Source of the DNA: an uncultured delta proteobacterium
Lineage (GTDB): Bacteria; Desulfobacterota; Binatia; UBA9968
Assembly: GCA_963755715.1 (NCBI GenBank)
Contig: CAVWLW010000014.1
Span: 1-64,000, forward strand
Direction of reading: 5' to 3'
Length of the DNA: 64,000 nt
Shown: positions 46,611-51,023 of the stretch, piece by piece
Layout of the letters: every line of letters starts with the position of its first letter
Numbering within the stretch: position 1 is the first letter of the stretch
Translations under genes and position numbers: made by a program
The notes under the pieces: model-generated
The model's input: only the letters and a program-made list of their open reading frames with translations
Databases searched by the model: none
Told to the model about the DNA's origin: nothing

Positions 46611-47654
46611 TTGTTTGCGGCACTTGTTTTTATTCTATTAGCGGCTTCAGGTGCACCGGGCCAAACCAAAAAGCCGACATCGCTCGCCGAGCTGGCGGCG
46701 TATATGGGGCAGGACCGCGAGCAACTTTTATTCACCGGCGCCAAGAGCGAGGGCAAGGTCGTTTGGTATACCTCGCTCGCCGGCGGTTCTTACAAAGCGA
46801 TCGTCGAAGTCTTCGAAGCGAAATATCCCGGGGTCAAAGTCGAAGTCTACCGAGCGGGCGGAGCGGACCTTACCGTCCGGCTCAGCGAAGAAGCGAAGGC
46901 ACGGCGCTACCTCGCCGACGCTCTCGAAACTACCGAAGAGCCGCTTGCGGCATTGCTCGAAGCCGGGATAATCGCCCCATTCAATTCGCCTTACCTGCGC
47001 AATTATCCGGAGCAAGCGCTCAAGAGGGCTGACAAAGGTCTGATCTATTGGGCCAACGCGCGCGAATCCTACGTTGGTTTCGCTTACAACAAGACCAAGC
47101 TGCCCGCTTCGGCTGTGCCGAAGAATTTCGATGGTTTGCTCAATCCGGAGCTGAAAGGGCGGATGGCGTTCGGTTCGGGCGGCACCGCGCCGGAAATTAT
47201 CGGCGCGATGGTCAAGACTAAGGGTGAGGCCTTCGTCAAGAAATTGAAGGCCCAAGAGATCCGGCTTTTTTCCATGGGCAGCTCGGCGGTTCGTGATCAA
47301 ATTGCCGGCGGTGAGATCGAAGCGGCGCCGGTGATTTTCAGAACTCACGCGATCGAAGCCGCCGAAAAAGGCGCGCCCATCGAGTGGCTGCCGATGGACT
47401 TAGTGCCGGTGCATGCCGGCTCGGCGATTCTCGCGGCGCGCGCGCCGCATCCGCACGCGGCGCTGCTAATGGTCGACTTTCTGTTCAGTGCCGACGGCCA
47501 AGGCGTGCTGGAAAAATTCAAATACGGCAGCGCCGCCAAGGACTACGGTTTCAAACGCTGGTACTTTACCGCCGGTCTCAACGCCGACCAACTCGAACGT
47601 CAGGTGACTTACTGGGAAAAGCTGATGCAGGGAATCGTCAAGAAAGGCGGCTGA
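46611..47654 (+). CDS. Extracellular solute-binding protein (iron/thiamine-type)
   Basis: GAKSEGKVVWYTS, APHPHAA. Confidence 0.88.
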   Translation: MFAALVFILLAASGAPGQTKKPTSLAELAAYMGQDREQLLFTGAKSEGKVVWYTSLAGGSYKAIVEVFEAKYPGVKVEVYRAGGADLTVRLSEEAKARRYLADALETTEEPLAALLEAGIIAPFNSPYLRNYPEQALKRADKGLIYWANARESYVGFAYNKTKLPASAVPKNFDGLLNPELKGRMAFGSGGTAPEIIGAMVKTKGEAFVKKLKAQEIRLFSMGSSAVRDQIAGGEIEAAPVIFRTHAIEAAEKGAPIEWLPMDLVPVHAGSAILAARAPHPHAALLMVDFLFSADGQGVLEKFKYGSAAKDYGFKRWYFTAGLNADQLERQVTYWEKLMQGIVKKGG

Positions 47655-47701
47655 CTTGGTGGCAGTCTGCTTATAGGTGCGTTAAATCGTTCGAAACTTG
47701 C

Positions 47702-48147
47702 TCACGTCCCGGCGAACCGCCGGTGATCGACCATCAGTCAGCGATCTTGTACGACTTTGATTCCTGCCTTGGCGAAGATCTCCGCCGCGGCGTCGTTGCG
47801 GATGCCCGACTGAAGCCAAACTGAATTCGGTTTCTTGGCCAGGATGTCGTCGATATGACCGGCGACATCATGAGAGCGGCGAAAGACATCGACCATATCG
47901 ATTTCGCCGGGGATGTCGGTCAGGTGGCGATAAACTTTCTCTCCGAGAATTTCTGTCGCTTCGGGATAGTAAACCGGCACCGGGACGATTTCGAAGCCTG
48001 CTTTCTTGAGATACATGCGGCACGTAGACTGACGGTTGATCGGCTTGCGCTTCGGTTTTGATGCCGAGCACCGCGATGCGTTTCGGTGGTTTGAATCAGC
48101 GCGCGAATCTCTTCGGTATTCTCGATCAGGTTGTCTTGCCAGTTCAT
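47702..48147 (-). CDS. CoA-binding protein (YccU-like), candidate selenoprotein; N-terminal frameshifts
   Basis: DMVDVFRRS, VWLQSGI, then VVQDR-TGA-LMVDHRRFAGT*, where homologs read DRCLMVEH. Confidence 0.85.
47709..47723 (-). promoter_or_regulatory. bSECIS-like stem-loop
   Basis: mRNA CCGGCG-GUU-CGCCGG; loop follows 20 nt after the UGA at 47738-47740. Confidence 0.55.
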
Positions 48148-48193
48148 TGCGCTAGTTTACCAGATGCCGTGCGTCCGAGCGACGGCTGGATTT

Positions 48194-48598
48194 TCATGCC
48201 GGCGTGCGGCAAACGGCTTCGATGTTGTTCCCGTCCGGGTCACGGACGAAGGCGCCATAGTAATTGGAGTGATATTGCGGTCGCAATCCTGGCGCGCCGT
48301 TGTCACGCCCGCCCGCGGTCAATGCGGCTTGATAAAATGCATCGACAAGAGCGCGGTTGTCGACGCGGAAGGCAACGTGCACTGGTACGTTGCCCGGTCT
48401 ACCCTGGCTTAGCCAGAACTCGGGACTCACGCCCTGTGTGGTGGTTTCTTTCGCTCCATAGCCGACAACGTCCGCCCTGCCAGTGACCGACGCGGGCAGT
48501 TCTTTCAGTAGAGAAATTCCCATCGCGCCCAACGCCGCTGAGTAAAAAGCTTTGCTTTTTGCCAGATCGCTGACGATGACGCCGGTGTGGTCGATCAT
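48194..48598 (-). CDS. VOC/glyoxalase family protein
   Basis: MIDH, HVAF, YYGAFVRDPDGNNIEAV. Confidence 0.92.
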   Translation of the reverse strand: MIDHTGVIVSDLAKSKAFYSAALGAMGISLLKELPASVTGRADVVGYGAKETTTQGVSPEFWLSQGRPGNVPVHVAFRVDNRALVDAFYQAALTAGGRDNGAPGLRPQYHSNYYGAFVRDPDGNNIEAVCRTPA

Positions 48599-48794
48599 AA
48601 GTAAACCTTCCGCGCATGTGACCTCAGTTTTTTCTACATCGATTATCGCGCGCTCGACCCGAGATGCAAGAGGCTTTTACTTCGTTCCTTTAGACATAAA
48701 ACCTTGACGATTGGCACGCTGGCGTAATAATTAGCCGAGCCGTTTTTTCTCTGGTTGTGCTAGACGAACGAAAACACGCAAAGGATAAAACTCC

Positions 48795-51023
48795 ATGGCT
48801 GATCACAAAATCGTAGGCACCTCGGTGCCGCGCGGCGAAGGCGGTGGCAAAGTGAGCGGACAGACCGTCTATGCGGCCGACGTGAAGCTTTCCGGCTTAC
48901 TGTGGGCGAAGATTCTGCGCAGCCCGCATCCGCATGCGCGCGTTCGGCGCGTGGATGTTTCGCGGGCCGAAAAAGTTCCGGGCGTATGCGCGATCATCAC
49001 CGGCGCTGATGTCGAAGGTTTTCTTATTGGTAAACAGATTCGCGATATGCCGGTTTTGTGCTGGGACAAGGTCCGTTTCATCGGCGATCGGGTGGCGGCG
49101 GTGGCGGCCGAGACGGTCGATGCCGCCGAAGAGGCGATTCATTTGATTGAAGTCGATTACGAGCTGTTGCCGGCGGTTTTCGATCCGCTCGAAGCGATGG
49201 CGCCGACTGCGCCAAAGCTTCATGACGACGTTGCCGATTACGATGGCGCGCCGAAAAAGCTTCTCGCCACCGATCTGCATAACGGTCTGACTCGGCTCCA
49301 ATGGAAAAAAGGCGACGTCGAGAAAGGCTTTCGAGAGGCCGACCTCGTCTTGGAGCATACTTTTATTACTCCCGCGCGCCATCAAGGTTATCTCGAACCG
49401 CACGCGGCGACGGTGGCGATCGAGGCCGACGGGCGCATTCAAGTCTGGGCTTCGGTGAAAAATCCCTTCGGCGTGCGCAGCCAGCTTTCGAAGTGCTTAT
49501 CTATCCCCGAGGAGCGCATTCGCATGAACCCGGTCAACGTCGGCGGCGAGTTCGGCGGCAAGGGCGACGGCGTCGATCTGCCGGTGCTGTACTTTCTGGC
49601 GCAAAAGGCGGGGAGGCCGGTGAAGATCGTGATGAGCTATGCCGAAGAATTATCAGCAAGCAATCCGGCGCATCCGACCGTGATTACGATCCGGACCGGC
49701 GTCATGCGCGACGGGACCATCGTTGCGCGCAAGATGCGCGCGGCACACGCGAGCGGCGGTTATGGCGCGCTCAAATCCAATAGCTCGCTTGCCACTTGGC
49801 ACTATGCCGGTGGACAGTATCGAATCGATAACGCGGATATCGAGTTCCTGCAGATTTATACCAACACGGTTCCAGGCGGTTATTATCGCAGCCCCGGTGC
49901 GGTGGCGACGGCGTTCGCGGTCGATTGTCATTCCGACATCCTGGCAAAAGAGCTCGGCATGGACCCGGCCGAGTTTCGTCTGAAAAATTTTCTCGGCGAG
50001 GGCGAGGCGGACGCCGTGGGAGATAAGCTGCGCAACGTGCGTTTCCGCGAGGTGCTACAAGGCGCTCTGGATGCCGCCGGTTGGACGAAAGCGAAAAAGC
50101 GCAATCACGGGCGCGGCATCGCCTTGTCGGGCCGTCATATCAGCGGCGGCGACACCGGGCTCGTGCTGAGCGCAGAGGCCGACGGCAGCTTTTCCATCGT
50201 CAGCCCGAGTATCGATCAAGGATCGGGCACGCACACAATCTTACGCCAGTTGGTTGCCGATCAGATGAAAGTGCCGGTCGAGCAAGTGCACGTAATCATC
50301 GGCGACACGGACAGTGCGCCGCGGGACGGCGGCATGAGAGCGAGCCGCATGACGTACGTCGCCGGCAACGCGATCATGCAAGCCTGTGAAAAACTGCGTC
50401 AACGCTTGCTCGATCAGGCGGGACGCATGTTGGAATGTCGGATGGACGAATTGGAGTTCTCCAACGGTAGATTTTCATTGCTGTCGGACCCGGGTCAGCA
50501 AGTGGCGCTGCGACGTGTGGTCGCCCAAACGAACGAACCTCTGGAAGTAACGGTTTACGAGGATTATCCCTATCCGGAAGATATTTCTTACGTCTGCGCG
50601 CAAGTGGCCGAAGTCGAAGTCGACCCCGACACCGGCGCGGTGCGCGTTCATCGGGTAGTCAGCGCGCACGACGTCGGCACGATCATCAATCCGGTCGCGC
50701 ACCAAGGTCAGATCGACGGCGCGACGATCATGGGTATGGGCCAGGGGATCATGGAAGAGCTGGTGATGGACGGCGGCCGGGTCACGAATAATAATTTGGG
50801 CGATTACAAGTTGCCATCGGTGAAAGACATCCCGGAACTGAGGACCGTGCTGGTGAAGTCTACCGGCGGCGTCGGTCCGCTCGATTCAAAACCCATCGGC
50901 GAGTTTGCCAACAATGCTCCGCCGGCGGCGATCGCCAATGCCATCGCCGACGCGGTCGGCGTGCGCCTATTCGAGTTGCCTGTGAAGGCGGAAAATATTT
51001 ATCGGGCGTTGAAACAGAGGTAA
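48795..51023 (+). CDS. Xanthine dehydrogenase family molybdopterin-binding subunit
   Basis: ILRSPHPHAR, GGEFGGK, YRSPG, AHDVG, SKPIGE. Confidence 0.92.
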   Translation: MADHKIVGTSVPRGEGGGKVSGQTVYAADVKLSGLLWAKILRSPHPHARVRRVDVSRAEKVPGVCAIITGADVEGFLIGKQIRDMPVLCWDKVRFIGDRVAAVAAETVDAAEEAIHLIEVDYELLPAVFDPLEAMAPTAPKLHDDVADYDGAPKKLLATDLHNGLTRLQWKKGDVEKGFREADLVLEHTFITPARHQGYLEPHAATVAIEADGRIQVWASVKNPFGVRSQLSKCLSIPEERIRMNPVNVGGEFGGKGDGVDLPVLYFLAQKAGRPVKIVMSYAEELSASNPAHPTVITIRTGVMRDGTIVARKMRAAHASGGYGALKSNSSLATWHYAGGQYRIDNADIEFLQIYTNTVPGGYYRSPGAVATAFAVDCHSDILAKELGMDPAEFRLKNFLGEGEADAVGDKLRNVRFREVLQGALDAAGWTKAKKRNHGRGIALSGRHISGGDTGLVLSAEADGSFSIVSPSIDQGSGTHTILRQLVADQMKVPVEQVHVIIGDTDSAPRDGGMRASRMTYVAGNAIMQACEKLRQRLLDQAGRMLECRMDELEFSNGRFSLLSDPGQQVALRRVVAQTNEPLEVTVYEDYPYPEDISYVCAQVAEVEVDPDTGAVRVHRVVSAHDVGTIINPVAHQGQIDGATIMGMGQGIMEELVMDGGRVTNNNLGDYKLPSVKDIPELRTVLVKSTGGVGPLDSKPIGEFANNAPPAAIANAIADAVGVRLFELPVKAENIYRALKQR

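Follow-up and report, generated by a model that had tools for sequence, protein, structure and literature searches.

Evidence for a selenocysteine-containing branch of the YccU/CoA_binding_2 protein family in Binatia

The window analyzed here, a stretch of 64,000 nucleotides from a soil bacterium, an uncultured delta proteobacterium of the class Binatia (GenBank assembly GCA_963755715.1, contig CAVWLW010000014.1, positions 1 to 64,000), carries a gene of the YccU/CoA_binding_2 family in which an in-frame UGA is, on comparison with related sequences, very probably a genuine selenocysteine (Sec) codon. The original prediction, made from the letters of the window, had proposed that Sec replaces Cys at this position, and the proposal is supported by the conservation of the TGA among relatives, by two clades of Sec forms that each possess their own hairpin, by frozen synonymous sites behind the codon, and by the presence of the Sec machinery in the genome. 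The gene (48147..47702, minus strand) encodes a CoA-binding protein with a single domain, similar in type to YccU, TT1466, and PH1109. SelB with Sec-tRNA(Sec) would be recruited by a GC-rich hairpin whose G-led triloop begins 20 nt after the UGA, the UGA at codon 136 would be read as Sec in the place of the one Cys that is conserved across the family, and translation would continue for 11 codons past the UGA and end at the next stop. The insertion mechanism would be the textbook bacterial one. The novelty lies in the family with its Rossmann-like fold, in the single-Sec motif DRULM, in two apparently independent origins, and in the clue to function that the conserved Cys provides.

The gene and its copy in the window

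The whole gene (48147..47702, minus strand) is delimited by a Pfam match, by intact orthologues, and by a structure model of an orthologue, and it starts with an ATG at 48147..48145. The predicted identity as a YccU-like CoA-binding protein is borne out by the match to PF13380 (CoA_binding_2), which has an E value of 7.3e-29 and a score of 101 bits against a cut-off of 22.8 and covers the C-terminal 107 residues at profile positions 22-115/116. Intact orthologues have 146-148 aa, with a typical length of about 147 aa. The window copy is spread over three frames owing to two extra bases, and with the TGA translated as a residue it reads MNWQDNLIENTEEIRALIQTTE in frame 1, RIAVLGIKTEAQADQPSVYVP in frame 2, and MYLKKAGFEIVPVP...KVVQDR-U-LMVDHRRFAGT-stop in frame 3. 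The in-frame TGA, which is codon 136 of the intact orthologues, is located at 47740..47738 on the minus strand. It is followed by 11 sense codons, LMVDHRRFAGT (47737..47705, minus strand), which correspond to the conserved C-terminal helix of the CoA_binding_2 family, and by the true stop at 47704..47702 (minus strand), a TGA in the window, which forms the 3' end of the selenoprotein gene. The minus-strand reading given for this region in the original prediction, from CAA GAT CGC TGA CTG to GGG ACG TGA, was re-read from the sequence and is exact.

Relative to four aligned relatives, the window copy has two extra single bases and is otherwise free of defects, so the earlier remark that errors in the window are mostly indels is true of this gene. 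One is an extra G (coding strand, +/-2 nt) at 48084 on the minus strand, which shifts the frame and is without counterpart in the relatives and in independent contigs. The other is an extra C (coding strand, +/-1 nt) at 48017 on the minus strand, which shifts the frame again and is recognized from the alignment and from the contigs of three soil DNA runs. Both are located outside long homopolymers. The independent contigs are public ones of four runs compared over 47500-48700, namely, the soil DNA runs X1, X2, and X6 from three studies and the RNA library X15. In every covering contig, one letter is absent at 48084 (X1 and X2) or 48086 (X6), and one letter is likewise absent at 48016-48018 in every covering contig of X1, X2, and X6. 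The in-frame TGA is kept in the contigs of all three DNA runs, which agrees with the window at the codon on which the prediction turns. A 1911-nt contig of X1 shows 30 differences over 47500-48700 and zero differences within 47598-47884, so that the TGA, the hairpin, and the stop are identical to those of the window. With about 30 of 1201 bases differing, the contigs are approximately 97.5% identical to the window and thus derive from close relatives, for which identity with the strain of the window is unproven.

When the window is compared with X1/X2, 26 of the 30 differences are packed in approximately 100 nt (47885-47987) inside the gene and the remaining sequence is almost the same, so that this cluster may be a small recombination tract or mosaic. 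The X15 contig from the RNA library is 214 nt long and covers 47624-47837, including the TGA site, which gives a hint, and only a hint, of transcription of the gene. In the same contig, the 56 nt between the convergent genes (47652-47709) are replaced by 23 other letters, and the contig probably represents a related strain whose intergenic spacer differs from that of the window.

The orthologue is also frameshifted, near the N terminus or in the middle of the gene, in two further genomes of the same genus, G020 (L033) and G019 (L046/L049), and these breaks fit indel-prone assemblies in this group. The two insertions in the window are highly likely to be assembly indel errors, presumably of long-read origin, and the frameshift in selD of the same assembly also points to such errors. 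The best-surviving rival explanation accepts the selenoprotein family and regards the window copy as a real pseudogene, in which both insertions are real and no full-length protein is made in the strain. The three frames across the gene, the position of the insertions outside long homopolymers, and the divergence of the insertion-free contigs, which leaves the same strain unproven, would suit this explanation. It is nevertheless improbable, because all covering contigs in three of three DNA runs from three studies are without each extra base, the remainder of the window copy has no other defect, selD, a gene needed for Sec use, is frameshifted in the same assembly, and similar breaks are found in the G020 and G019 assemblies. 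An intact selenoprotein gene with two assembly errors is the preferred reading of the window copy.

Selenocysteine and cysteine forms among relatives

The C-terminal ends of solved homologues read DRCLMVEH in TT1466 (onward DRCLMVEHKR), DRCPAIE in 2duw, and NRCMMREH in PH1109. The window TGA corresponds to the conserved Cys position because the solved homologues have Cys there, and the alignment of these ends thus upholds the claim that the UGA stands at the conserved Cys of the family. The homology that was said to continue in frame past the first TGA is also real, with LMV(D/E)HR kept behind the TGA as well as in the Cys forms and in TT1466.

Independent TGA/Cys pairs, a search for which was among the checks proposed in the original prediction, were found in number, with TGA in 26 other genomes or records and TGC or TGT in 102 unique relatives. 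Among 40 relatives, 16 additional members of the genus have an orthologue (78-88% identical) in which this codon is likewise TGA, and a second family (f3, genus g3) has TGA in two genomes and Cys in four. In a class-wide draw of 401 genomes, the orthologue contains an internal TGA in 21 genomes (E < 1e-54; G077 removed) and is without an internal stop in about 36 genomes, and an internal TGA is absent from all of the more distant paralogues in this draw. After the loci were pooled and duplicates were removed, 128 unique genes were obtained, comprising 26 with TGA, 75 with TGC, and 27 with TGT; the 26 unique TGA forms were counted without G019, which also has TGA. An in-frame stop occurs 10-13 codons after the TGA in 26/26 unique Sec forms. 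The related records carry the names "Candidatus Binatia bacterium" or "uncultured delta proteobacterium," and the Cys forms reach Acidobacteriota, Gemmatimonadota, Pseudomonadota, and others.

Two candidates were rejected in the course of these comparisons. G077 was discarded as a TGA form, as its TGA is the terminator and Cys is found at the site. P0253, a sequence with 46% identity from a 50%-identity representative library that ends with ...VVMNR before the Cys position, was considered as a third Sec lineage and rejected. In the DNA of 80 P0253 relatives from metagenome contigs, TGC or TGT was identified by pattern in 61, and the other 19 consisted of 17 with NRC by eye and 2 cut by the contig end. 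TGA at the site was thus found in none of these 80 metagenome relatives, which yielded no third Sec lineage, and P0253 is probably a cut gene.

A maximum-likelihood tree was built from 126 unique proteins with the Sec/Cys column masked and with the truncated window and L033 copies left out. The unpublished genomes G005, G359, and G402 are among its rows, and no conclusion depends on them. The 24 Sec rows group into two clades, both of which are embedded in Cys forms, and at least 3 changes are needed to explain their distribution. The first Sec clade (f1) contains 19 Sec rows and 1 Cys row with an SH-aLRT support of 95, and the second comprises 5 Sec rows within the 18-row clade of genus g3, which has an SH-aLRT support of 99. 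This topology fits two gains of Sec and one reversion, although the tree was rooted arbitrarily and leaves many of its forks unresolved. The Sec forms represent two origins among close kin, and the counts of genomes therefore overstate their independence.

The downstream hairpin and the selenocysteine machinery

The bSECIS-like hairpin is located at 47723..47709 on the minus strand and consists of the 5' arm CCGGCG (47723..47718), the loop GUU (47717..47715), and the 3' arm CGCCGG (47714..47709). It starts 14 nt after the UGA and reaches its loop 20 nt after the UGA, and the perfect CCGGCG/CGCCGG stem with a GUU loop at that distance is present in the window exactly as first described. The further extension by UCAC/GUGA fared less well. 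The pairing is present in the window, but it depends on the TGA stop found there and is not conserved in relatives, most of which end with TAA or TAG. In E. coli fdhF, the SECIS element is a coding-region stem-loop directly after the UGA, with a G/U-containing apical loop that is recognized by SelB. The window hairpin is also a stem-loop downstream of the UGA inside the coding region, as in the fdhF type, but it has no sequence similarity to that element, and hairpins of the window type have a perfect G-C stem of 6-8 bp, a 3-nt loop, and no evident bulged U. The bSECIS criteria listed in a 2026 review (PMC13188914) are a loop of 3-9 nt, a stem of 4-16 bp, a G in the first two loop positions, a distance of 16-37 nt from the UGA to the loop, and a minimum free energy of <= -7.5 kcal/mol. 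The predicted likeness to a bSECIS element agrees with all of these, the window hairpin having a 3-nt GUU loop, 6 bp, a spacing of 20 nt, and, for the bare 15-nt hairpin, an energy of -9.4 kcal/mol.

In 25/25 Sec forms with enough downstream sequence, the UGA is followed by a perfectly paired stem of 6-8 bp, at least 5 of which are G-C, closed by a G-led 3-nt loop. The hairpin of the f1 clade, CCGGCG-GUU-CGCCGG, has its loop at +20; L025 deviates by a GUC loop and L036 by a change of one pair from G-C to G-U. The g3 clade has GGUCGCC-GGC-GGCGACC instead, with a loop position of +23, so that the two hairpins are offset by 3 nt and differ in sequence. A comparable hairpin at 18-25 nt is present in 7/102 Cys forms, 3 of which have a G-led loop. 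Over the 45 nt that follow the codon, the folding energy averages -15.5 kcal/mol in Sec forms versus -11.7 kcal/mol in Cys forms (Mann-Whitney p = 2e-5, a value that is overstated because the sequences are kin).

Since the f1 and g3 hairpins are nonhomologous and the stems are nearly invariant within clades, the freezing of synonymous sites was evaluated instead of a covariation count. In 19 genes of the Sec clade, invariant columns with degenerate residues use a single codon in 2/65 cases upstream of Sec versus 4/7 cases downstream of it, and among the frozen downstream columns are the two Arg codons, each with six-fold degeneracy, that lie in the 5' arm. The frozen synonymous sites point to selection on the RNA itself.

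Taken alone, the hairpin is weak evidence. A strong hairpin (stem of 6 bp or more with 5 or more G-C pairs, a G in the first two loop positions, and a loop at 16-37 nt) follows 37/1992 UGA triplets of the window (1.9%), the loose published bSECIS model (stem of at least 4 bp) fits 1247/1992 of them (63%), and shuffled versions of the 54-nt stretch fold as well as the original (z = -0.45). The case therefore rests on the comparative data. In addition, part of the stem is attainable from codons for H-R-R-F-A-G, and an Rfam search of 47500-48300 at a permissive E value yielded no match.

A second explanation takes the TGA as a plain stop, so that the protein would end at Arg135 and the conserved sequence behind it would be noncoding, such as a terminator or regulatory hairpin. 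Among the best 120 representatives of 90%-identity clusters, gene callers end the protein exactly at ...QDR in 97 (96 of which have 135 aa), 22 continue through a Cys, and 1 is a shorter fragment; the names given by the sources are "predicted CoA-binding protein" or "uncharacterized protein." A GC-rich hairpin does come after the TGA, and the fold of the single sequence is no better than chance. However, the ten codons behind the TGA encode LMV(D/E)HRR, the conserved C-terminal helix of the family, which Thermus TT1466 shares at an identity of 38%, the frame is kept up to the nearby stop in all of the unique Sec forms, and the codon itself aligns with an invariant Cys. A scan of 47400-48800 identified no terminator-like site at 47709-47723, and the stem is followed by GGACGTGAGC instead of a T-run. 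The TGA and the hairpin also appear to have been acquired together, independently, in two clades. A plain stop is accordingly very improbable, and under the preferred reading of the UGA as Sec, most database entries of the Sec clade are 11-13 residues short, cut at the TGA, which is a common annotation error.

The genome of the window has 7.4 Mb in 76 contigs and is 93.6% complete. The Sec machinery, whose absence would have told against the prediction, was found there, with selA (617 bits), selB (416 bits), selD, and tRNA-Sec (76.7 bits; called SeC with anticodon tca by ARAGORN) all over cut-off. The selD gene (G000:C3:71086-72013, L018/L019) is in two pieces with one assembly frameshift and has its own in-frame TGA in the motif G-U-A-A-K. 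The selA, selB, and selD genes lie in one cluster of the genome outside the window. Among the TGA-form genomes tested, selA is over cut-off in 21/22. The presence of selA was also tried as a separator of Sec and Cys genomes and was rejected, as selA occurs in 46/50 genomes of both kinds.

The least probable explanation, for which nothing specific was found, is that a near-cognate or suppressor tRNA or a changed genetic code lets the UGA be read through as Trp, Cys, or Arg; TGA serves as an ordinary terminator in the window gene, L032, L033, and L038 (the terminal stop in 17 other tabulated Sec-form orthologues is TAA or TAG in 14 and TGA in 3), the genome has a complete Sec machinery, and the codon stands at a Cys position before a hairpin that fits the SelB-type model.

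The sole Cys member of the f1 Sec clade, L055 in genome G355, has kept the stem, and its loop is CUU instead of GUU. None of selA, selB, and tRNA-Sec was found over cut-off in G355 (92% complete, 90 contigs), and L055 may represent a reversion from Sec to Cys after the loss of the Sec trait. None of the three was found over cut-off either in G009, a TGA-form genome (93% complete, 670 contigs), which blunts this argument, and the absence from G355 may reflect incompleteness.

Fold, proposed chemistry, and significance

A structure model was obtained from the L025 orthologue with a pLDDT of 94.9 and a pTM of 0.90. The model superposes on Thermus TT1466 (1iuk) with TM scores of 0.85/0.92 and an rmsd of 1.5 A at 38% identity, and 1iuk is also a PDB homologue by sequence (E 1.1e-26). 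The TM scores with Pyrococcus PH1109 (2d5a) are 0.84/0.87, and the CoA-binding domains of PatZ and of ADP-forming acyl-CoA synthetases superpose more weakly. The PF13380 members Thermus TT1466 (1iuk/1iul), Pyrococcus PH1109 (2d59/2d5a), and Klebsiella 2duw share the domain of the window gene, and TT1466 and PH1109 have the same single-domain Rossmann-like fold as the model. The members of PF13380, to which we take E. coli YccU and B. subtilis YneT to belong, have in common a length of approximately 140-150 aa and the C-terminal motif [DN][RL]-C-x-M-x-E-H. The window protein differs from them by Sec in the place of the conserved Cys and by a SECIS-type hairpin over the last ten codons, and all of the solved and named members have Cys, not Sec. 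In the L025 model, the last strand spans residues 130-133 and the last helix residues 137-145, which places residue 136 at the N terminus of this helix, a location that would favor a reactive thiolate or selenolate.

To our knowledge, Sec almost always marks the residue that does the chemistry, and the fact that two lineages independently have it in place of the one Cys conserved in the family speaks for a reactive rather than a structural role of this Cys. The likely partner is suggested by a study of B. subtilis spores, in which the 135-aa protein YneT yielded the peptide TVIMDLC126IK with CoA disulfide-linked to Cys126 (PMC8127865). By the motif V-x-x-D-[RL]-C and the distance from the C terminus, as distinct from an alignment, Cys126 would be the same residue as the Sec of the window protein. 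By analogy with this Cys-CoA disulfide, the selenol would most likely react with the thiol of bound CoA, and selenol (or thiol) chemistry directed at CoA is likely in the family. In the mechanism envisaged, the selenol would react with the bound CoA thiol, or with an acyl or thiol group on CoA, via a selenenylsulfide intermediate, and the Sec form would speed up a step of thiol exchange or transfer that the Cys forms also carry out.

Gene neighborhoods were compared as well. No neighbor genes are conserved between the two Sec clades, and they give no functional hint. The g3 copy is flanked by an SDR gene and a rhomboid-like gene. In family f1, a gene for an XDH-family molybdenum subunit is a frequent divergent neighbor of Sec and Cys forms alike, and in the window this divergent gene is located at 48795-51023 (plus strand). 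A glyoxalase/VOC-family gene (48194-48598, minus strand) precedes the selenoprotein gene in the same orientation, with 46 nt between them, and among the loci of the relatives, a homologue is found only in G355. The solute-binding-protein gene at 46658-47652 (plus strand) shows 97.7% DNA identity to that of G355 (L055/L134) with flanks at about 80%, and from this pattern it looks like a gene recently exchanged between two species of the genus. Between the window and G355, the YccU and glyoxalase genes are without any blastn alignment.

Table 1 of the 2026 review lists 119 prokaryotic selenoprotein families or subfamilies, and PF13380, YccU, or a CoA-binding protein of this kind is absent from that table (PMC13188914). 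The window protein resembles the families in the table in that UGA is found at a Cys position, Cys homologues are far commoner, a G-led hairpin with a small loop occurs 16-37 nt downstream, Cys has apparently been converted to Sec, and the database annotation is truncated. In contrast to those families, it is without a UxxC/CxxU pair, having a single Sec in the motif DRULM, and it is a Rossmann-like nucleotide-binding protein rather than a thioredoxin-like one. An FAD oxidoreductase of the CoA-disulfide reductase type in the same table (TIGR03385, UGxP) also appears, by its name, to place selenium at a CoA thiol/disulfide site (PMC13188914). That enzyme is large, depends on FAD and NAD(P)H, and has a fold unrelated to that of the window protein, which has neither a flavin nor a second redox residue and thus could act only by exchange with a partner.

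Whether the family had already been reported as a selenoprotein was left open in the original prediction, and no earlier report was found in the literature searched. CoA-binding, YccU, and PF13380 are not mentioned in the main texts and supplements of the BSepDB (PMC13326102, with a supplement that is possibly incomplete) and deep-Sep (PMC12013277) papers; the family is not mentioned as a selenoprotein in the main texts of PMC5029168, PMC2398784, and bioRxiv 10.1101/2022.07.06.499078; and full-text literature searches returned no report of the YccU/CoA_binding_2 family as a selenoprotein. In NCBIfam, no model was over cut-off and none was specific. As far as the searched literature goes, the Sec branch of the YccU/CoA_binding_2 family is therefore unreported. 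The family is still recorded without a known function; in the words of one paper, "yccU is so far an uncharacterized protein" (PMC10933411).

With this Sec branch, a family with a nonthioredoxin fold would join the known prokaryotic selenoproteins, and a widespread family with solved structures and no assigned function gains a concrete hypothesis, a reaction with the thiol of bound CoA. The Sec forms, the Cys forms, and the one apparent revertant with a changed loop base constitute a natural test set. A broader and more tentative idea, built by analogy and in our judgment rather doubtful as it stands, is that the YccU/PF13380 proteins may be catalytic "CoA-redoxins" and not passive binders, in which the thiol of CoA would meet the C-terminal Cys or Sec and CoA or acyl groups would be shuttled on and off proteins via a mixed disulfide, a selenenylsulfide, or a seleno- or thioester, with soil bacteria of the Binatia type having upgraded the system twice independently. 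If true, this would provide the first mechanistic handle on a family that extends from E. coli to archaea, as well as on the enzymology of protein CoAlation.
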